Below, one piece after another: positions 2,323 through 10,662 of a stretch of 64,000 bases of DNA. This DNA is from Kiritimatiellia bacterium (GTDB lineage Bacteria; Verrucomicrobiota; Kiritimatiellia; RFP12; UBA1067). The number at the start of each line of letters is the position of its first letter. Position 1 is the stretch's first letter. The notes under the pieces were generated by a model. The model made no database searches and was not told the origin of the DNA. It worked only from the letters and a program-made list of their open reading frames with translations. The stretch lies in the NCBI GenBank assembly GCA_017962315.1, contig JAGCVN010000118.1, forward strand, positions 492 to 64,491, read 5' to 3'. The translations under genes were made by a program, and so were the position numbers.

Positions 2323-3558
2323 GTGAGACACTTGACGGCGATGAACGAGACGGACCGAAAAACAAAAGAAGCAGGAGCGGGAAGGTGCAACGGGCATTGC
2401 GCGCAGTGCCCGCGCCGCGAGGCCTGCCCCGCCCGGAAAGCGGCCGGGGGCTCGCCGATTCTCCTTTCCAAGATGACGCGCGTCGGTTCCTCCCGCAACC
2501 GGGACGGAGTCGGGTTCGCCGTCGATGTCGGCAGCACGACCCTCGCCGCCGCCCTTTACGACCTCCGGACGGGAGACCTCCTGGCCGGCGGGGGGCGGAT
2601 GAATCCGCAAGCTTCCGTGGCGTCGGATGTCATCGGGCGTATTTCGGCGTCGGAACAGCCGGGCGGACTGGAACGGCTTCAGCGGCTCGCGTCGGACGCG
2701 ATCGAGACCCTGCTCGGCGAAACGTGCGCTTCGGCGGGCGTCGCCGCCTCTTCCCTTGCAGACGGGGTCGTGACGGGGAACACCGTCATGCTCCACCTCC
2801 TCACCGGGCGCTCCCCATCCTCCCTCGGACGCGCACCGTTCAACGCCGAATGGCTGGGCGGCTGCGGGAAACCGCTCGCCGGGCGCCCCGTCTGGTTCCC
2901 CCCCTGCCTCGGCGCGTTCGTCGGCGCGGACCTGCTCTGCGCCCTGATTGCCGCCGGTCTCGACCGCGAGGAGGGGCCGGACGCGCTGCTTTGCGACATC
3001 GGGACGAACGCCGAGGTGGCGGTGCGGGCGAACGGGACGGTGTTCGCGACGTCCACCGCGGCTGGTCCCGCCTTCGAGGGGACCGGCGTCAGGGGATCGG
3101 AACTTCTGGACGCCATCGCGGGATTCCTCGCGTCGGGGAAAATCTCGGAAACGGGGGCGAGCGCGCCCGGTTCGCTTGTGCTGGACGACGGCAGAACGCT
3201 CGACAACGCGGACGTCCGCGCCGTCCAAGTGGCGAAAGCGGCCGTCGCGGCGGGTATCTCCGTCATGCTGGACGAAGCGGGGACAAGCGCGGAGGCACTT
3301 TCCGAAATCTTCCTGGCAGGCGGGTTCGGCTGCGGGCTGAACCCTGTTTCCGCCGAGCGGATCGGGATGTTGCCGTCGGCCCCCGGTGCCAAGAAAACGC
3401 CGATCGGGAACGCCGCGTTGACGGGGGCGGCGATCCTGCTGCTCCACCCGGAACGACGGGAGGCCGCGCTGCGGCTGGCCCGGCGTGCACGTCTGGTCGA
3501 ACTTGGAGGAAATTCCGTGTTCGCCGGCCGTTTCATTGACGCAATGATGTTCGAGTAG
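2323..3558 (+). CDS. ASKHA-fold ATP-binding protein, DUF4445 family (RACo C-terminal-like)
   Basis: Motifs FAVDVGSTTLAAALYD, GNTVMLHLL, LCDIGTNAEVAV and STAAGPAFEG are typical of DUF4445. Start is uncertain (2323, 2341 or 2473). Confidence 0.7.
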   Translation: MRHLTAMNETDRKTKEAGAGRCNGHCAQCPRREACPARKAAGGSPILLSKMTRVGSSRNRDGVGFAVDVGSTTLAAALYDLRTGDLLAGGGRMNPQASVASDVIGRISASEQPGGLERLQRLASDAIETLLGETCASAGVAASSLADGVVTGNTVMLHLLTGRSPSSLGRAPFNAEWLGGCGKPLAGRPVWFPPCLGAFVGADLLCALIAAGLDREEGPDALLCDIGTNAEVAVRANGTVFATSTAAGPAFEGTGVRGSELLDAIAGFLASGKISETGASAPGSLVLDDGRTLDNADVRAVQVAKAAVAAGISVMLDEAGTSAEALSEIFLAGGFGCGLNPVSAERIGMLPSAPGAKKTPIGNAALTGAAILLLHPERREAALRLARRARLVELGGNSVFAGRFIDAMMFE

Positions 3559-3619
3559 GATTCTGCAGTCATGCGGAATGACGAGACTCGGACATCTTTC
3601 CCCTTGTTCAAAAAAAAAT

Positions 3620-3648
3620 AGGCAAGCCAGCCGCCCGCGCTTCGCACG
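3620..3648 (+). repeat. 29-nt GC-rich repeat aggcaagccAgccgcccgcgcttcgcacg; second copy at 31586..31614
   Basis: 28/29 identical and in the same orientation. Both copies lie in non-coding DNA at the edges of accessory clusters. This copy is preceded by an A9 run at 3611-3619 (T9 on the minus strand). Confidence 0.7.
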
Positions 3649-3693
3649 AGAATGCACATCAGGGCAAGTTTCTGAAAACAACATGAACAACTT

Positions 3694-3780
3694 AAAACAA
3701 CATGTGGTCCTTCCGCGTACAACCGTGCGCGGTTATGAAAACGCCGCGCGGTTGCGCGGCGAGGGAAGGATGTTGTTTTT
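3694..3780. repeat. 87-nt imperfect palindrome / multi-hairpin element, copy A (inverted partial copy at 36002..36071)
   Basis: Outer arms aaaacaacat (3694-3703) / atgttgtttt (3770-3779) plus ccttcc/ggaagg. Inner hairpins aaccg-tgcg-cggtt and cgccgcg-cggttg-cgcggcg. About 60 of 69 nt match the reverse complement of 36002-36071. Confidence 0.65.
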
Positions 3781-3845
3781 GTATCTTAAGCTTTACAACT
3801 GCCTTATGCGTCAACCATCGCAAGTAAGCATCGCCACAGACAAAA

Positions 3846-3876
3846 GTGGAAGATGCAATTTTTTCTCATCTTCCAC
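3846..3876. terminator. 10-bp perfect stem-loop (gtggaagatg / catcttccac), insulator or terminator-like
   Basis: Arms at 3846-3855 and 3867-3876 with an 11-nt loop. On the minus strand it is followed by TTTTGT. It sits immediately upstream of the predicted ATPase promoter. Confidence 0.35.
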
Positions 3877-3905
3877 TTGACATAGTGCAAGATGTCTGAT
3901 AGACT
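3877..3905 (+). promoter_or_regulatory. Sigma70-like promoter TTGACA-17 nt-TAGACT for the AAA ATPase gene
   Basis: TTGACA at 3877-3882, a 17-nt spacer, then TAGACT at 3900-3905. GGAGAA RBS at 3921-3926 and ATG at 3934. Confidence 0.45.
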
Positions 3906-3933
3906 CTCTTTAAATCTTTTGGAGAAACCAGCG

Positions 3934-5307
3934 ATGCTAATCAACCTCGAAATCGAAAACTGGATGTCCTACAAGGGCAAAGCGGCAATCTCGCTCTCTG
4001 CTTCCCGTGAGCAGCAGCATAGCGAGACGCTTGCGGCATTTCCGCGCCTCAAGATGCGTTTCCTTCCCATCGCCATGATGTTTGGCGGAAATGCAAGCGG
4101 CAAGTCCAATTTCTTCAAAGCCCTTGCATTCTGCAAGTCCTTTGTCCAGTTCGGTATACAGATGCAGCCCGAAGAGCCGATAGCCGTAGAGGCATTCCGC
4201 CTTGACGCCGAAAGCGAATACAAGCCAACTCGATTCTCATTCAGTGTCCTGGTGGGGAATGACATTTATGATTATTCTTTTGCTGCAACAAGACTTCGCG
4301 TTACAGAGGAAAAATTCTCCCGGCGCACATCTCCGGCAAAGGACCTGTCTTATTCGCGGGTTTGGGACAGTAAAAAAGAAACATACGAATTCACTTTTGG
4401 CAAGGCATTTGATACGGATCTTGCACTTGCACAGCTCATATCGCGCAGTGTCCGCGAGAATCAGCTCTACTTGTCCGTCGCCGCCTCACAGAATCTTCTC
4501 GCGCTTCTACCCGTATACAATTGGTTCGCGAAGACACTTAGACTTATTTCACCAGCCCAGAACCATACAACCATCGAAAGATACGCCGACAAATCATGGC
4601 CGGCCTCGGCACGTGTAAGTGAGATGCTTCGCGAATTCGATACTGGCATCGCCGAAATCAGGCGTACGCATATTCAGCGAAGCGAGATCCCAATGCCTCC
4701 GCAATGGGTCGACGACTTCATCCGCCAGACACGCGAGGGCATGACCCTTCGTCTCAATAAGAATGACGAGACGATGCCCTATCTAATCACCCGCCTGAAC
4801 GGGGAACTGATTTTTGAAAAGCTCACGGCATGCCACAGAGCCTCAACCCCAAACGGGGAGACAGCCGAATTCGAACTGTCGCATGAGTCGGAAGGCACGC
4901 AGCGCATCCTCGACCTTCTGCCAGCGCTTGTCGATCTGGAAAGCAACGCGATACCGCATGTATTCGTCATCGATGAAATAGACCTACAGCTCCATACGAT
5001 GGCGACTCAGCGAATCATCGAACTCTTCACAGGTTCGCGGACAAAGGACTCGCGGTCCCAGATTCTTGCAACAACACATGATCTGTTCCTCATGGACCAG
5101 AGCATCCTTCGTCGCGACGAAATGTGGCTGGCCGAGCGCAATCCGCGTACGGAGACCTCAAAACTGGTAAGCGTGAACGACTTCCTTGAAACCCGCACGA
5201 ACCTCGACCTCCGTAAATTCTATCTGTCTGGCAGAATGGGCGGAATCCCTTCTATCCTCACAGGAAAACGTAAATCTGAAAGGAGGCGCGCATACCAATG
5301 CGAATGA
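3934..5307 (+). CDS. AAA_21/AAA_15-type (ABC-like) ATPase of the defence-associated AriA/PtuA/RloA kind
   Basis: N-terminus MLINLEIENWMSYKG, Walker A GGNASGKSNFFKAL, Walker B VFVIDEIDLQLH, then ATTHDLFLMD and the C-terminal FYLSGRMGGIP signature. The track ORF starts at 3892, but the promoter and RBS favour 3934. Lower GC than the flanks. Confidence 0.8.
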   Translation: MLINLEIENWMSYKGKAAISLSASREQQHSETLAAFPRLKMRFLPIAMMFGGNASGKSNFFKALAFCKSFVQFGIQMQPEEPIAVEAFRLDAESEYKPTRFSFSVLVGNDIYDYSFAATRLRVTEEKFSRRTSPAKDLSYSRVWDSKKETYEFTFGKAFDTDLALAQLISRSVRENQLYLSVAASQNLLALLPVYNWFAKTLRLISPAQNHTTIERYADKSWPASARVSEMLREFDTGIAEIRRTHIQRSEIPMPPQWVDDFIRQTREGMTLRLNKNDETMPYLITRLNGELIFEKLTACHRASTPNGETAEFELSHESEGTQRILDLLPALVDLESNAIPHVFVIDEIDLQLHTMATQRIIELFTGSRTKDSRSQILATTHDLFLMDQSILRRDEMWLAERNPRTETSKLVSVNDFLETRTNLDLRKFYLSGRMGGIPSILTGKRKSERRRAYQCE

Positions 5308-5326
5308 CAAGAGTCGACTGAAAAGC

Positions 5327-5363
5327 GACGTCCGAAAGCCGCTACCAACAGCCTTCGGACGTC
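5327..5363 (+). terminator. Perfect 10-bp stem-loop downstream of the ATPase gene (gacgtccgaa / ttcggacgtc)
   Basis: Arms at 5327-5336 and 5354-5363. No clear T-tract, so it may be a terminator, attenuator or processing site. Confidence 0.3.
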
Positions 5364-5498
5364 ATCCGCAGCGGATATGGAATCCTTTGCAGACCATGGC
5401 GGTTGTCAAGAATACCATATCTGCTGCTGGAAGTCAAGTGCGGCTTAGCCGTGTGGCGAGCTGCTTTCATCCAGACCATCCCCCAAAAGGAGGAAATT

Positions 5499-6152
5499 AT
5501 GATCAGCAGACGATACTGCGTATTCAATTCGGATATCCTTGCTGGCGCGGAGTTTACGCCTGGCGAAGAATATCCCAAAGTCAAAGGGACCATCCTATGG
5601 ACGCCGCCTTCGAAAATCAATCCGTTCGACCGAGCTTCCGAGCCGCACGACAAATGCACATGGATGCACTTCCATGTACACGACAGGCGTTTTCGCGCAT
5701 TCTACGGAAAGCCGGAGAAATATCTGCGGCTTCTAAAGGAGTACGGAGGAGTGTTCGGCATCGACCACAGCGTCTATCGGGATATGCCGCTCATCGAGCA
5801 GAAGTACAGCGTGTACTTGAACCGCGCCACGGACTTCTGGTTCGAGAAGAACGGGATTCCCGTCATCAGCAACGTGTCGTGGGGCGACAGCCGCACGTTC
5901 GCGTTTTGCTGCGCGGGCATTCACCAAGGCGTTTCGATCTCTGTTTCTGCCTATGGCTGTACCCGGTCGAAAATCGACAAGGCGTATTTTATCGACGGAT
6001 TCTGTTCCGTCTTGGACACGCTGAAGCCCGTGAACGTGTTTCACCAAGGACGCATTCTCCCCGAAGCACAGGCGTACGCCGACCATGTCGGCGTGCCGCT
6101 CTTCCACATTCCGAGCCGCCGCGAGGAGGTGTTCGCGGAAGGAGGCCGATGA
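5499..6152 (+). CDS. DUF4417-like protein
   Basis: AAAGGAGG RBS before ATG 5499. WMHFHVHDRRFRAFYGKPEKYLRLLKEYGGVFGIDHSVYRDMPLIEQKYSVYLNRATDFWFEKNGIPVISNVSWG resembles my recollection of the DUF4417 consensus. Not verifiable here. Confidence 0.55.
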   Translation: MISRRYCVFNSDILAGAEFTPGEEYPKVKGTILWTPPSKINPFDRASEPHDKCTWMHFHVHDRRFRAFYGKPEKYLRLLKEYGGVFGIDHSVYRDMPLIEQKYSVYLNRATDFWFEKNGIPVISNVSWGDSRTFAFCCAGIHQGVSISVSAYGCTRSKIDKAYFIDGFCSVLDTLKPVNVFHQGRILPEAQAYADHVGVPLFHIPSRREEVFAEGGR

Positions 6153-6556
6153 TGGGCAAGGGAGAACACGGACATTTCGCCGGTACGCAGGGCGCAGACC
6201 CTCACCACAACCTGACCGACAACCTTCCCGCACTGAAGGAGGCATTCAAGTCCACCCCTGAAGGATATTTCGGTACAAAAGGCAGTAGCACCAAAGTACG
6301 GAGAATTTCATCTTCAGACCCGGTGGCAACTGCGAAGAAGTTCTTCGAGATCGCCTCTGCGGGCGGGGTAAAGGATGAAAAAGTCAGTTCTGGAAATGAG
6401 CGTGTCTCAGTGGTCATGAAAGATGGCAGCCGAATAACCATGCGCATCACTTCTTCCTCGGATGGCTCGCCGGCGGTGGATATCGTCGTCTCAAAAGTCT
6501 CAAAAGGTGCAATCAAGGATCAGAAGATCCATTTCACGAAAGGAGAGCAACAATGA
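6149..6556 (+). CDS. Hypothetical 135-aa protein, translationally coupled to the DUF4417 gene
   Basis: ATG 6149-6151 overlaps the upstream TGA 6150-6152 (ATGA). Gly/His-rich N-terminus and a beta-rich C-terminus ending IKDQKIHFTKGEQQ. No family recognised. Confidence 0.55.
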   Translation: MMGKGEHGHFAGTQGADPHHNLTDNLPALKEAFKSTPEGYFGTKGSSTKVRRISSSDPVATAKKFFEIASAGGVKDEKVSSGNERVSVVMKDGSRITMRITSSSDGSPAVDIVVSKVSKGAIKDQKIHFTKGEQQ

Positions 6557-7095
6557 AAATCCGCAACTTCTGCATAACAAACGATGAGAAGGCCGCTCTG
6601 TCCCAGCTTAAGGGCAAGAAGATTGTCGCTCTCGTCAGCACCGGCAGCGAAACCGCCTCGGATGAGGACGTATTTATACGGACAGAAGAATCTGACGTCA
6701 GGTTCCACAACACCGAAAAAGTGCCGCCGTCGTTCGATCCTGATCTTGCGCGGGCGGTGATCGAAGCAGGCCCGATAGGTTCGTTTCGCATATCATGGGC
6801 AAAAAATGAGCCCGAAAATCCGTGGGACGAAACCTATTGGAGTATAATCCGCATCGACAAGATTGTTCGTCGCATTTCCATCTACAATTGCGAAGAAAAT
6901 GATTCCGACTGCGACGGCAACGAGTTCCTCGACAGGGATACTGCCTTGATCGTGTTCCACTTTGACGACGCGTGCCTTGTGCTTCAGCACAATCTCATTT
7001 CGATCATGTGGACGATGTCCTATCAAGACAATCCTGAGGTTGACTTCGACAAATTGTTTGTGATAGACGGAAAAGTCACAAAGGAGGTGCTGTGA
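6553..7095 (+). CDS. Hypothetical acidic 180-aa protein, translationally coupled (possible immunity or partner protein)
   Basis: ATG 6553 overlaps the upstream TGA 6554-6556 (ATGA). Acidic, with no signal peptide or TM segment. No family recognised. Confidence 0.55.
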   Translation: MKIRNFCITNDEKAALSQLKGKKIVALVSTGSETASDEDVFIRTEESDVRFHNTEKVPPSFDPDLARAVIEAGPIGSFRISWAKNEPENPWDETYWSIIRIDKIVRRISIYNCEENDSDCDGNEFLDRDTALIVFHFDDACLVLQHNLISIMWTMSYQDNPEVDFDKLFVIDGKVTKEVL

Positions 7096-7102
7096 CAGAG
7101 AA

Positions 7103-7136
7103 ATCGGGCTGCGTGTAATACTGCACGCAGCCCGAT
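7103..7136. terminator. Bidirectional terminator hairpin between convergent modules
   Basis: Perfect 13-bp arms atcgggctgcgtg (7103-7115) and cacgcagcccgat (7124-7136), placed between the stop at 7095 (+) and the stop at 7190 (-). Confidence 0.6.
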
Positions 7137-7189
7137 GATTTGCCATTTCAATCCAATCTATATGAGATTACGGTACGGAAGAAATCGCG

Positions 7190-8365
7190 TCAACTGTTTC
7201 CCTTGACGCGGTTGTGATGTTTGCAGAGCATCTGGCAGTTCGCCTCCGATGTGTCGCCGCCCTTTGACCATGCCGTGACGTGGTCCGCCTCCATCTCGTT
7301 GAATGCGTAGATGCGCTTGGCGTTCGCATCGTGCGCCAATACGCAGTCGGGGCAGTTTGAAACGCCCTTGGCCTTCGCCTCGTCCGTCTGCCGCTTGTAC
7401 ACCTTGCGGGCAATCTCCGCTCCGAACATCCGCACTTTGAGCAGTTTCCTGTCCGTCTCGCCGCCGAGGACGTACTCGAAGATGTTGCGCCGGGCCTGTA
7501 TCTTGCCGTCGTCCGCGTCGGCGTACAGCGCCTCGACGCGCTCCCACACCTTGTCCGGCGAATAGGGCCTGTCGTGGTACAACTCGTAGAGCCGCCCCCA
7601 TTCAAGCCCGCGCATCTCGGCCTTGACATCCTTGAAAATCCCGTCGATCCACGCAATGACACTCTCGAAGTAATTTGTCAGTTCCGTGATGTCAGGATTG
7701 TGCCGATGGTCTTTCATATACTCCTCTACATTCCCTTTCGACACCCAGTCGAGCGCAACGGCGAGGATTTCCTGCCGTCTCTCGTTTCCCTTCACGTAGG
7801 CTTTCCACGTGTCGATGTTTGAGTTGCCCGAGTTGCTAAACACACTTTTCGCCGCTGTTACGAACGAACCGGAATACACGGCGTTCAAAAGTTCTTGCGG
7901 AGTGAGATCGACACCCGCTATGTTTATGGTCTTGAACCACTGCTTTATCTCACTCTCCGGATCGGGGCCCTCGCCCTCGCAGATGTAGATCGTGAGCGGG
8001 ATGTTCAATATGCGCCCGTGCAGCGATTTGTCGAAGTTGTGCGGATGTCCGTCTTCGTCCATGACAGGCATCTTGCCCGTCACGAACCGTCCGAAGCTCG
8101 TAATGCGCTGTTGGCCGTCCAAAACCTCGTATCGATCTTCGCCTGTCTTGAGGAAGTAGAGAAGCCCAAGCGGATACCCTTTCAAAAGCGACTCAACAAC
8201 GGCTGTGTCGCGTTTCAATTCCTCGTAGATGTAGTTGCGCTGGTATTCGGGTTGTATTACAAGTTTCCCGCCCCAGCCGTTTACGCCCTTGCCCTCAAGC
8301 TTGTTGTAGTAGAATCCCTTGCAGATGTCCCCGACAGTGATGTCGGTGCGAAGTGTGGTTTTCAT
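7190..8365 (-). CDS. DUF262 (ParB-like, GmrSD N-terminal) domain fused to a C-terminal HNH endonuclease
   Basis: N-terminal IQPEYQRNYIY and VLDGQQRITS are hallmark DUF262 motifs. The C-terminal CPDC...ADHVTAWSKGGDTSEANCQMLCKHHNRVKGN is a classical HNH. Confidence 0.85.
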   Translation of the reverse strand: MKTTLRTDITVGDICKGFYYNKLEGKGVNGWGGKLVIQPEYQRNYIYEELKRDTAVVESLLKGYPLGLLYFLKTGEDRYEVLDGQQRITSFGRFVTGKMPVMDEDGHPHNFDKSLHGRILNIPLTIYICEGEGPDPESEIKQWFKTINIAGVDLTPQELLNAVYSGSFVTAAKSVFSNSGNSNIDTWKAYVKGNERRQEILAVALDWVSKGNVEEYMKDHRHNPDITELTNYFESVIAWIDGIFKDVKAEMRGLEWGRLYELYHDRPYSPDKVWERVEALYADADDGKIQARRNIFEYVLGGETDRKLLKVRMFGAEIARKVYKRQTDEAKAKGVSNCPDCVLAHDANAKRIYAFNEMEADHVTAWSKGGDTSEANCQMLCKHHNRVKGNS

Positions 8366-9429
8366 TTCACGTCTCCTTTCTTGCGACGGATGAGAATACG
8401 CGCATAGGTCTCTATGCCATCAATTGTAAACCGATGTCCATAATGTGGATTGTCAGGTACGTATCGATCCAAGCCGATTATCTCAAATTGCTCCGGGCAG
8501 TACTTGTCGAGGAACGAAATGGGCACGCCCATCACGCCGTCGTAGTCGGCCGGTATCGCATCGGTGAACGGCACTTCGATCGCGTCGTAGTTGTCGTACT
8601 TCCTGTATCCGACTCCTTTCACCTCCTTGTGGCGCGAGTACTTGATGTTTCTCGCCTCCGTCATGAGCTGCAATGGCTGGTGGCGCCTTCCGTGCTCGAG
8701 GTTCGTGAACCACCTCACGCCCTTGACGCGGATGAAGTGGTTGCCCTTTGAATCGACGCGCCACCCCGCCGCGTTCAACGGATATTCTTTCGGTACGCCA
8801 AATTCACGGTCGCCGCTGTGGATGCTTTCGCCAAGCCACATTTTGTTTGATTTGATGAGCGGGAACACCTCCTTGTAAGTTATCGCGTTCATGTTTCCGA
8901 TGATGAGGAAATTCTTGTCGGCATCGACAATCCACTTCAGAAACTCGCGGAAAAGCGAGAATGGCGGATTGGTGACGATGACGTCCGCCGCATCGCGGAA
9001 CTTCTTCACTTCCTCGCTACGGAAGTCGCCGTCTCCCTTCAGATACCACCATTCGAGGTCTTCGAAGTTGATCTTGCCGTCGCCGTTGACGTCGTGGTCG
9101 AGAATCATCATACGTCCGTGCTTCGGGTCGAGATTACGCCCCGCCGCCCAGTCGAAGAGCTCTAGGCCGTACTTGTCTTTTTTCGCCGCCGGCGCATAGC
9201 TCGTCGATATGAGCTTCTTTAGACCGAGCCGCGTAAAGTTCTCAGCGAAGAACCGGGTGAAGTTACTTTCTTCCGGGTCGTCGCAAGGAAGGAGGACAGT
9301 CTTGCCTCGAAACGTATCCGGGTCGTATTCGAGATAGGCGTTTACCTCCGCCTGAATGTCGGCGTATTGAGTGTAGAACTCGTCGTTCTTCGCCTTCTTG
9401 GCCTTTTGAAGCGCCGTTGTGTCCACCAT
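8362..9429 (-). CDS. EcoRI-methylase-family N6-adenine DNA methyltransferase
   Basis: KKAKNDEFYTQY, CDDPEESNF, VIVTNPPFSLFREF, IIGNMNAITYKEVFPLIK, YDNYDAIEV and MGVPISFLDKYCPEQFEI match the family. AGGAG RBS before ATG 9429. The track ORF extends to 9651 and another ATG lies at 9483. The stop overlaps the nuclease start by 4 nt. Confidence 0.85.
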   Translation of the reverse strand: MVDTTALQKAKKAKNDEFYTQYADIQAEVNAYLEYDPDTFRGKTVLLPCDDPEESNFTRFFAENFTRLGLKKLISTSYAPAAKKDKYGLELFDWAAGRNLDPKHGRMMILDHDVNGDGKINFEDLEWWYLKGDGDFRSEEVKKFRDAADVIVTNPPFSLFREFLKWIVDADKNFLIIGNMNAITYKEVFPLIKSNKMWLGESIHSGDREFGVPKEYPLNAAGWRVDSKGNHFIRVKGVRWFTNLEHGRRHQPLQLMTEARNIKYSRHKEVKGVGYRKYDNYDAIEVPFTDAIPADYDGVMGVPISFLDKYCPEQFEIIGLDRYVPDNPHYGHRFTIDGIETYARILIRRKKGDVK

Positions 9430-10002
9430 TGCCGAAACTCCTGCGAGAAGCGCGGCGCACAAGGCAATCGTCAATCTATCCATTTCCGCGTCTCTACTTC
9501 TTGCTCGCGCATCGTCTCGGCGCGGACACCATGTCCATGCATGAAAAGGGGCGCGGTGATCCGATCTCATGCACTCGAACGAAGCCCTACCACAGGCCCA
9601 AAGTGAATACATGAAACAGAAAACGCGCCCATACGGACGCGCAACCTGCAACCATGCCGTTCACTTTTATGAAATAGTGGTAGTATTTCGTTCGAACGTC
9701 GTGTTTGCCGTTACGCAAATCGTTTTCTCGGCGCATTGGATTTCTCCCCTTTGCGCCAAAGCCCGTCGGCCGGCTTCCGCCTCGACCGGACGTCTGCAGT
9801 CTACCACGCCTCCGCCCTTGGTTCAAGCGTGTTTTTGTAACGGGCGCGGGATACGGGGTTTCCTGCGACGACCAGCGGGGACGGTGTCCAAACGCTCGGG
9901 CGCGGCGGAACATCAGAAAAATTTTACAAAATAGTTCTTTTCTTGTTACTGCTTCTTTGGTACTATCACGGCAGTATTTGGAAAGCGTTTTCGGGAACAA
10001 GA

Positions 10003-10662
10003 ATGACAACTGTCGCAAACATCGTCACGCCGGAGAACGGTGTGTATACCTGCCGAAAGCCGGACGGGGTGCGTCTTCGCCCCGGCAGCAGGTGTCTCGC
10101 CACGCTGGATTACGGCGTGGATTGCGTCACATTCCGTTCCGAGGAGACGGCGGACAGTCCGCTGCCGACGTTCCTCCTGCTGCGCGAACTGCGGGAGGCG
10201 GACGGTGCGATACTCGCCCAGAACGAAGAGATCGCAAGCCGTGCGAGGGAAGCGTTCGACCGTGTAACGGCGGGGGAAAGGGGGGGTGTCCGCGCCTTGC
10301 GTTCGCGGTTGTCGTTCGGACGCGAGCGCCTGTTCATCCGGTACACGGCCCAGATGCCGCTCGACCTTCGGCGGTACGCAGGTGAACTGGGACGCGCGTT
10401 CCACACACAGTTCCACTTCTGGCAGGTTTCCGCCCGGGAGGAGGCGGCTCTGCTGGGGTGCGTCGGCGTGTGCGGGCGGAAAGCGTGCTGCTGTTCCTGG
10501 CAACAGACCCCGCCTCCGGTGACCATCAAGATGGCGAAGGAACAGGCCGTCTCGCTCCAGCCGGCGGCGATCAACGGAATCTGCGGCAAACTCAAATGCT
10601 GCCTCGCCTTCGAGAACGAGGCGGGGGCGGGAACGACCGACAAGGAGGACACAGGCAAATGA
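10003..10662 (+). CDS. PSP1 domain protein (RicT/YaaT-like)
   Basis: PSP1-type core plus the Cys-rich tail GVCGRKACCCSW...ICGKLKCCLAFE. Start chosen at the internal ATG 10003. Confidence 0.7.
   Translation: MTTVANIVTPENGVYTCRKPDGVRLRPGSRCLATLDYGVDCVTFRSEETADSPLPTFLLLRELREADGAILAQNEEIASRAREAFDRVTAGERGGVRALRSRLSFGRERLFIRYTAQMPLDLRRYAGELGRAFHTQFHFWQVSAREEAALLGCVGVCGRKACCCSWQQTPPPVTIKMAKEQAVSLQPAAINGICGKLKCCLAFENEAGAGTTDKEDTGK

Follow-up and report, generated by a model that had tools for sequence, protein, structure and literature searches.

In several described bacterial systems an ABC-like ATPase is encoded beside a toxic effector. The ATPase of AbiL from Lactococcus, AbiLi, is paired with AbiLii, as RloA is with RloB, the second protein being Toprim-like; the ATPases of PARIS (AriA) and Septu (PtuA) stand next to AriB (DUF4435/Toprim) and the HNH protein PtuB, respectively. 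Diverse toxins have been described as having ABC-type AAA ATPases and ImmA proteins for promiscuous partners (PMC10440598), and CapH/CapP have been described as regulators of immune operons (bioRxiv 10.1101/2022.04.27.489752). Here we describe a locus in a 64,000-nucleotide (nt) stretch of DNA, referred to as the window, from a Kiritimatiellia bacterium (GenBank assembly GCA_017962315.1, contig JAGCVN010000118.1, positions 492 to 64,491). It comprises an ATPase gene followed by genes for a DUF4417 protein and two small proteins, ORF3 and ORF4 (ORF, open reading frame). An initial annotation, made from the sequence alone, had proposed these four genes as an uncharacterised defence module. Comparable loci in other genomes are designated by L numbers.

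The locus resembles each of these systems in its ATPase and departs from each in what follows. As in AbiL and RloA/RloB, the ATPase is of the AbiLi type (best PADLOC model, 1e-70, 236 bits), and its homologues at 42-51% identity occur in AbiLi-AbiLii pairs. However, the window has no AbiLii/RloB and carries instead a 191-bp structured leader and a cassette that appears to consist of DUF4417, a toxin and its immunity protein. With PARIS and Septu the locus shares an ABC-like ATPase beside a putative toxic effector, and the ATPase also matches the models of AriA (4.4e-32), HEC-01A and PtuA (2.5e-5), all much more weakly than AbiLi. On the other hand, none of the downstream proteins matches AriB in Pfam or PADLOC, and no PtuB-type HNH gene lies on the same strand, the sole HNH protein (7190-8365) being a restriction enzyme encoded on the opposite strand. 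The candidate effector module also has three proteins, including an immunity protein, which is lacking in PARIS and Septu.

The best reading of these comparisons is that a DUF4417-toxin-immunity cassette, widespread and so far undescribed and equipped with a conserved leader, has taken the place of AbiLii beside the ATPase. The two joined units may act as a single toxin-based abortive-infection or addiction module, a proposal that could equally well hold or fail.

An AbiLi-Type ATPase That Has Lost Its Usual Partner

The open reading frame at 3892-5307 contains all of the ATPase motifs listed in the initial annotation, GGNASGKSNFFKAL, VFVIDEIDLQLH, THDLFLMD and FYLSGRMGGIP, and its product belongs to Pfam AAA_21 (5.6e-33). 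Profile comparison with solved structures gave PtuA (8ee4, E 0.022) and no other relative by sequence. We place the start of translation at the ATG at 3934 (457 amino acids, aa) rather than at 3892, because the -10 hexamer lies inside the longer reading frame, public gene calls begin at 3934 and the orthologues align from there. The promoter proposed initially, TTGACA and TAGACT separated by 17 nt, is present and has a TG extension. By itself a consensus scan performs at the level of chance, with 4 sites in 6.7 kb where 3.9 are expected, but the -35 element (TCCACTTGAC) and the extended -10 element (TGnTAnACT) are kept upstream of the orthologous ATPase genes in L018 and L009, with a spacer that varies. 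A perfect 10-bp inverted repeat with a T-rich loop, GTGGAAGATG ... CATCTTCCAC, at 3846-3876 abuts the -35 element; its 3' arm (TCCAC) is kept in L018 and L009, and the repeat may act as an operator or terminate transcription from upstream.

The ATPase is not decaying, because every residue that is invariant in 15 homologues is retained, Walker A G51-K57, D347/E348 and H382 among them, and because the comparison with its L018 orthologue (synonymous divergence, dS, 1.09) gives a ratio of non-synonymous to synonymous divergence (dN/dS) of ~0.05. Against L009, non-synonymous divergence is 0.19 and synonymous sites are saturated. All four genes, those for the ATPase, DUF4417, ORF3 and ORF4, are under purifying selection.

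Relatives of the ATPase at 51%, 47% and 42% identity each have an RloB gene within 13 nt downstream, and these RloB proteins score as AbiLii (5e-26 to 6e-21). The placement of the protein among the ABC-like ATPases that pair with nucleases, made in the initial annotation, was thus borne out, and the canonical AbiL pair is the ancestral state, because these relatives keep it. According to the same annotation, the strand of the ATPase carries neither a Toprim/OLD nor an HNH partner downstream, and our searches agree. Neither Pfam nor PADLOC matched RloB/AbiLii among the genes downstream of the ATPase, a tblastn search of 5100-7200 with RloB returned only noise, and an RloB profile found nothing in the whole 64-kb window. 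A remnant of RloB in the gap at 5308-5498, or in the short ORFs of the L009 and L018 intergenic regions, was considered and rejected (tblastn noise, nothing in Pfam), as was the idea that DUF4417 is a divergent RloB/Toprim protein (hhalign probability 0.4%). To judge from these sequence searches, the lineage of this ATPase has lost its usual Toprim-like partner, AbiLii/RloB.

ORF3 and ORF4 as a Predicted Toxin and Immunity Protein

The initial annotation described the first of the small ORFs as 135 aa long and coupled to DUF4417 through an ATGA overlap. The ORF is present, but its start is most likely 6152 rather than 6149, giving a protein of 134 aa that begins with MGKGEHG and matches the family N-terminus MGKGxHG; its overlap with the DUF4417 stop would then be one base (TGATG), not four. 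The second ORF is the acidic 180-aa protein of that annotation, and here the ATGA overlap stands: the ATG at 6553 overlaps the TGA of ORF3. The overlapping stop and start, and the order of a basic (pI 9.5) and then an acidic (pI 4.6) protein, fit the architecture of type II toxin-antitoxin pairs.

Neither protein has a relative of solved structure by sequence, and ORF3 gave zero matches in Pfam, PADLOC, PHROG and NCBIfam. Its motif did not occur in the supplement of a toxin-discovery paper. The AlphaFold2 (AF2) model of ORF3 (predicted local distance difference test score, pLDDT, 77) found no match with E <= 0.001 in a Foldseek search of the PDB; a likeness to AriA structures was dismissed (E 0.08, TM 0.29). 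Relatives are few in very large collections: 35 for ORF3 among 5.8 billion proteins, and five for ORF4 among 1.8 billion representative proteins. Among ORF3 relatives R98, S101, S103, D104, G105, P107, K125 and F128 are invariant, and S102 and H127 nearly so.

The evidence for the nature of ORF3 comes from its occurrence in larger proteins. In L070 the ORF3 domain is the C-terminal part of a protein of 2713 aa that also contains 30 RHS repeats (RHS_repeat 1e-236), DUF6531 and LysM, and in L081 it follows a PT-TG pre-toxin domain (9.2e-13); both proteins end in a domain of the form R..SSSDG.P..DI...KIHF. Directly 3' of ORF3, in all 59 readable non-redundant loci, lies an acidic ORF of 164-201 aa (pI 4.2-5.4), the RHS-fused case included; two contigs that end too early were left out of this count. 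An iterative search recruited 52 of the 59 acidic ORFs into one divergent family, and ORF4 evolves fast, with 21% identity where the ATPase keeps 71%. Placement at the C-terminus of RHS or PT-TG proteins, together with a partner gene that follows directly, is an accepted signature of a polymorphic-toxin domain and its immunity protein. Because the ORF3 domain is used in this way and the acidic ORF follows it in 59 loci, we predict that ORF3 represents a new toxin-domain family and ORF4 its cognate immunity protein or antitoxin; ORF3 would be toxic and ORF4 would neutralise it. The initial annotation had missed the toxin/immunity nature of the small ORFs, as it had the conserved hairpin described below.

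The likeness to RHS and PT-TG polymorphic toxins, in which the domain is the C-terminal tip and a gene of the ORF4 family always comes next, raises the question of whether the locus serves competition between bacteria, with ORF3 exported to kill competitors, ORF4 protecting the producer and DUF4417 acting as an accessory or adaptor. The RHS and PT-TG contexts are hallmarks of secreted toxins, and truncated orphan copies of ORF3 followed by full-length immunity genes occur in L075, L079, L080 and L086, which also favours such a role. We nevertheless consider it very improbable. In the window the domain is a standalone protein in which no N-terminal trafficking or delivery domain, or Pfam domain, was found; it is coupled to DUF4417, with the leader upstream; and the MGKGxHG N-terminus is kept only in the cassette form. 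Moreover, the phyla that carry the cassette differ greatly in their cell envelopes, the upstream partners of the cassette are intracellular regulators or an ATPase, and DUF4417, with enzyme-like invariant polar residues, is absent from the RHS and PT-TG loci. By this comparison the window ORF3 shares a toxin domain with the polymorphic toxins but is not itself one, and neither the toxin nor the immunity family is in Pfam.

A Three-Gene Cassette in Several Phyla

A profile scan of one genome per species found ORF3 relatives at 61 loci, in Kiritimatiellota, Lentisphaerota, Bacteroidota, Fibrobacterota, Actinomycetota, many Bacillota, Spirochaetota and Planctomycetota. DUF4417 was adjacent and on the same strand for 64 of the 73 ORF3 matches, usually directly upstream and, in six loci, downstream of the pair. 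The conserved unit is a three-gene cassette with its leader rather than the four-gene block.

The commonest upstream gene, at 17 loci, encodes an ImmA/IrrE peptidase of ~180 aa, usually after a helix-turn-helix (HTH) gene; HTH genes alone, HTH-ImmA fusions, a PIN protein and a 148-aa protein take this position at several other loci. The 150 nearest neighbour genes include HTH_3 (18) and Peptidase_M78 (16) proteins and match the PADLOC models capH (10), RmrA (8, down to 2.8e-37) and capP (4). The position directly downstream of ImmA/IrrE and HTH genes (>= 17 loci) recalls the Rosmer (RmrT/RmrA) and CapH/CapP operons. In the window, however, Pfam finds no ImmA or HTH gene upstream of the cassette, the ATPase being in that position, and no cassette protein matches RmrT.

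Two further features of the surroundings were seen. A family of ~140-150 aa (KLGF..AAEL...ERGFKV), which gave no match in Pfam or PADLOC, is encoded directly upstream of Kiritimatiellota-type cassettes (L088:374-820, L089:607-1053, L026:7218-7670 and L028:7254-7670). A second DUF4417-like gene lies shortly downstream of the first cassette in L026:8985-10505 and L056:7283-10624, which suggests tandem cassettes.

The assignment of DUF4417 at 5499-6152 in the initial annotation was confirmed by PF14386 (1.9e-40; 138.7 bits against a cut-off of 28.9; model positions 19-168 of 183). The AF2 model (pLDDT 88; predicted template modelling score, pTM, 0.87) is built from repeated beta-alpha units, and the invariant polar residues, among them D62, D89, S91, R94, Y106, N108, R109 and N125, lie by inspection at the ends of strands. 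The protein is thus predicted to be an alpha/beta enzyme. It has no relative of solved structure by sequence, and Foldseek found no match in the PDB with E <= 0.001 and no TGT among the 50 matches listed. In a library of viral models the best matches were phage DUF4417 proteins, of the same Pfam family and fold (TMq 0.78-0.84); the next was a phage queuine tRNA-ribosyltransferase-like (DpdA/TGT-like) protein (E 4.4e-4, TMq 0.55, root-mean-square deviation 6.2). This weaker resemblance to transglycosylases is at the level of the fold only, and we take it as a lead and not as an assignment.

The abundance of DUF4417 in phages suggests another origin for the locus, as a remnant of a phage or other mobile element in which DUF4417 would have a part in packaging or modifying DNA, as may be its role in phages, and the small ORFs would form the element's addiction module. 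DUF4417 occurs in 492 phage records, at the left genome end in Mycobacterium cluster A phages and, in a Streptococcus phage listed in a table of one review, near the terminase genes; it has been reported as phage-enriched and often fused to ParB-CTPase folds, and integrases lie near 5 of ~50 cassettes. Yet the phage proteins are only 26-35% identical to the window protein, which lacks a ParB domain. The genes that flank the module in the window, L009 and L018 include neither structural nor replication genes of phages. No relative of ORF3 was found in 2.9 million viral contigs or 72,556 plasmids, and we rejected the cassette as a phage or plasmid component on this ground. Taken as a whole, an origin as an element's remnant is scarcely probable.

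A Conserved Hairpin in the Cassette Leader

The 191-bp spacer between the ATPase and DUF4417 genes is 86% identical between the window and L018, whose synonymous sites differ by 57%. Its portion at 5319-5459 is 86-90% identical among the window, L018 and L093. The window leader folds with a z score of -6.6, and eight of nine tested loci gave values of -3.4 to -7.8; no Rfam family matches it.

Within the leader lies a moderately stable hairpin (-23.9 kcal/mol, z -2.4) without a U-run on the + strand. Its loop core, CTACCAAC in the window and GCGCCAAC or the complement GTTGGCGC in the family, is common to hairpins at the same position in Kiritimatiellota, Actinomycetota and Bacillota, whose stem sequences are unrelated. 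In an alignment of 15 sequences, compensatory changes occur in 13 of 15 stem pairs and 88% of cells are paired, against 60% in shuffles, a statistic that is partly circular because the seeds were chosen as inverted repeats. An independent test is provided by a covariance model (R1) run over both strands of 812 kb, which gave many hits in loci outside the seed set. Of its 33 hits, 31 lie 90-281 nt (median 136) upstream of a DUF4417 start; none falls in the AbiLi-AbiLii loci, and the 64-kb window has a single one, at 5328-5362 (37.7 bits). The initial annotation had allowed that this hairpin might be a real terminator. It is neither an incidental feature nor simply the terminator of the ATPase gene, but a conserved element of the cassette. 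An integron attC-like hairpin was rejected on inspection of the sequence, since the conserved CCAAC lies in the loop and is unpaired, unlike the R''/R' core sites. In L049 a second copy (6567-6600, 30.3 bits) directly follows the immunity gene, so that the cassette is bracketed by two hairpins.

Both orientations of the loop are found. Of 25 hairpins read on the coding strand, 20 have an A-run before them and only 4 a T-run after them, and the element therefore looks like an intrinsic terminator of the minus strand; a terminator scan also lists the window hairpin as terminator-like on that strand. A promoter-like site faces it in the window (Table 1), and minus-strand sites occur in other leaders: TTGACT-18-TATACT in both L009 and L092, TTGATT-17-TATCAT in L088, and TTGACT-17-TAAAAT in L045, there as one of two in the scanned region. 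In L009, L092 and L088 these are the sole promoter-like hits in the leader, and TGGTAnnnT is kept in all five aligned leaders. We infer a small minus-strand transcript of ~80 nt, from ~5402 to 5320, that would end at the hairpin plus a U-run. A scan of the window leader for a sigma-70 promoter of DUF4417 on the + strand found none, which does not exclude that one exists.

Are the ATPase and the Cassette Linked?

A DUF4417 cassette lies downstream in all six members of the ATPase clade with readable context (the window, L018, L087, L009, L092 and L093), and AbiLii is absent from all six. That a cassette invariably accompanies the ATPase is concluded from these six members, a metagenome scan with the ATPase having returned three loci only. 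At least four further genomic contexts contain all four genes together, with ATPase identities of 69-91%. An ATPase of this AbiLi type is found upstream of the cassette only in these members of the Kiritimatiellae clade, but in the Firmicute locus L076 a different AbiLi-like ATPase (PDC-M12A, 5e-112) lies directly upstream, and its neighbours match no PADLOC partner model. L076:888-9524 is itself an island that encodes a TIR-TPR protein (938 aa), a RES-domain protein, the PDC-M12A-type ATPase, the cassette and a 185-aa ORF without matches.

The most informative member of the clade is L093. Its ATPase is 94% identical to that of the window, and the two DNAs remain homologous (90%) across the leader as far as window position 5459; homology is then lost until 7188, within the restriction gene. 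In between, L093:1351-2889 holds a different cassette, with a divergent DUF4417 (24% identity, Pfam 1.7e-5), a basic 166-aa ORF (pI 10.1) and an acidic 120-aa ORF (pI 4.2). Neither small ORF matched Pfam or PADLOC; they may be a second toxin/immunity pair for DUF4417. The swap makes the locus a cassette site, in which the ATPase and leader are constant and the DUF4417-toxin-immunity units exchangeable. In line with such exchange, synonymous sites of ORF3 and ORF4 are saturated between the window and L018 (proportion of differing sites, pS, 0.86-0.88, against 0.57 for the ATPase and DUF4417).

These observations can also be read in another way, in which the two units are unrelated neighbours: an autonomous mobile cassette would have inserted or recombined at a hotspot and displaced AbiLii, leaving the ATPase to act alone or with a partner encoded elsewhere. 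Several findings weigh against a functional link and on the side of mere adjacency. The cassette is present in ~55 genomes of several phyla, and ~50 of these 55 lineages have no ATPase. The closest relatives of the window DUF4417 (88% identity, L088 and L089) have an unrelated 148-aa gene upstream instead of the ATPase, and L088 is homologous to the window only from ~5319 onwards, immediately ahead of the hairpin. The conserved leader is part of the cassette and may contain its own control elements, and the hairpin could insulate the ATPase from DUF4417. The L093 swap left the flanks unchanged, and the difference in pS suggests separate histories. Against the proposed module as a whole, the cassette proteins have no PADLOC match, and no biochemical activity can be assigned because ORF3 and DUF4417 lack a significant match of solved structure. 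In addition, adjacency of defence genes in islands is often without functional meaning.

On the other hand, if the ATPase had simply been left behind, it would be difficult to explain why it is so well kept (71% identity where synonymous sites are saturated, with the low dN/dS given above) in a clade in which all six members lack AbiLii and have a DUF4417 cassette. No RloB is encoded elsewhere in the 64 kb, and a second AbiLi-like lineage, that of L076, has the same arrangement. We therefore regard unrelated neighbours as a serious explanation, though on balance a doubtful one. We keep to the reading in which the two units are joined; the ATPase would control the cassette, and the link is plausible but unproven.

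The claims of the initial annotation on this point were accordingly correct in part. The four genes do recur together, but what is conserved is the three-gene cassette, mostly without the ATPase. DUF4417 does stand beside AbiLi-type or AbiLi-like ATPases in the six-member clade and L076, but not in most cassettes. We regard the locus as a candidate for a new toxin-based defence module. The cassette is described by no PADLOC model and in none of the literature searched.

Layout of the Locus and Its Flanks

The block is a composite of an ATPase unit (3934-5307) and a discrete cassette (5319-7136) made up of the leader, DUF4417, ORF3 and ORF4 (Table 1). NCBIfam gave zero matches for all of its proteins.

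Table 1. Positions of genes and predicted signals at the ATPase-cassette locus of the window.
Feature	Position	Strand	Basis
ATPase-gene promoter	3877-3905	+	Consensus scan; -35 and extended -10 kept in L018 and L009
AbiLi/RloA-type ABC-like ATPase, 457 aa	3934-5307	+	Pfam AAA_21, PADLOC AbiLi
Small transcript, ~80 nt (predicted)	5320-5402	-	Prediction from leader, hairpin plus U-run
Conserved hairpin of cassette leader	5327-5363	unassigned	Covariance model R1
Promoter-like site facing the hairpin	5409-5437 (read from 5437 to 5409)	-	TTGACT-17-TATTCT with TG
DUF4417 protein, 217 aa	5499-6152	+	PF14386
ORF3, basic 134-aa protein, pI 9.5 (predicted toxin domain)	6152-6556	+	Toxin-domain family, profile searches
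ORF4, acidic 180-aa protein, pI 4.56 (predicted immunity protein/antitoxin)	6553-7095	+	Predicted immunity protein/antitoxin
Hairpin terminator between cassette and convergent restriction gene	7103-7136	unassigned	Folding energy, terminator scan

Three statements of the initial annotation about the surroundings of the block hold. The block ends at a strong terminator hairpin, at -33.8 kcal/mol (z -7.3) on the + strand and -29.7 kcal/mol (z -6.7) on the - strand, which the terminator scan also lists as terminator-like. Its guanine-plus-cytosine (GC) content lies below that of the backbone, at 0.47-0.56 across 3500-10000 against 0.60-0.71 in the flanks. The module that faces it is indeed restriction-like: a convergent restriction-modification pair on the - strand (7190-9651) encodes a GmrSD_N (DUF262)+HNH enzyme (PADLOC REase_II, 9.6e-78) and an EcoRI-type adenine methylase (Pfam, 1.7e-129). 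The methylase is 355 aa long in public gene calls and 429 aa as the longest ORF. The pair adjoins the ATPase in L093 and is absent from L009 and L018; it is not co-conserved with the module. The ATPase, the cassette and this pair make up a ~6.4-kb island of low GC, bordered by a RACo-type gene (2323-3558) and a gene for a PSP1-domain protein (9943-10662); ORF and Pfam scans showed neither an integrase nor a tRNA gene at the edges of the island.

Discussion

The data allow us to propose how the two joined units might work, with a role in defence as a candidate function. The first unit would be the AbiLi-type ATPase, expressed from its own conserved promoter. The second would be the self-contained cassette: a structured leader with its hairpin and probable minus-strand transcript, the DUF4417 enzyme, and the toxin/immunity pair. 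ORF3 and ORF4 would be translationally coupled, and the immunity protein would keep the toxin from acting by binding it in a stoichiometric complex. Phage infection, DNA damage or a similar trigger would be sensed upstream, in this lineage by the ATPase and in most others by the ImmA/IrrE peptidase and HTH repressor; when the balance is upset, the toxin would arrest the cell. The standalone toxin would have DUF4417 as its obligatory enzymatic partner, and the target of DUF4417 may be nucleic acid.

A broader version of this scheme is more speculative, and we think it unlikely, if worth stating. The cassette might be an autonomous and widespread immune system in its own right, composed of a small antisense RNA that ends in the hairpin with its conserved loop, DUF4417 as a TGT/DpdA-like barrel that acts on nucleic acid and possibly recognises the hairpin, a toxin of new fold and the immunity protein; AbiLi-type ATPases without a Toprim partner and ImmA/IrrE-HTH pairs would then be interchangeable sensors.

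If the proposed assignments are true, ORF3 and ORF4 would add a new toxin domain and a new immunity family common to secreted RHS/PT-TG toxins and intracellular cassettes. DUF4417, which is common in phages and mentioned in only four papers among the literature searched, would acquire its first functional context. The hairpin, with its covarying stem and a loop kept across several phyla, and the probable antisense transcript constitute an unexplained regulatory or recognition element. As for the ATPase, AbiL-type proteins would be able to swap a Toprim nuclease for a quite different effector module, which would extend the promiscuous pairing of sensors and effectors.

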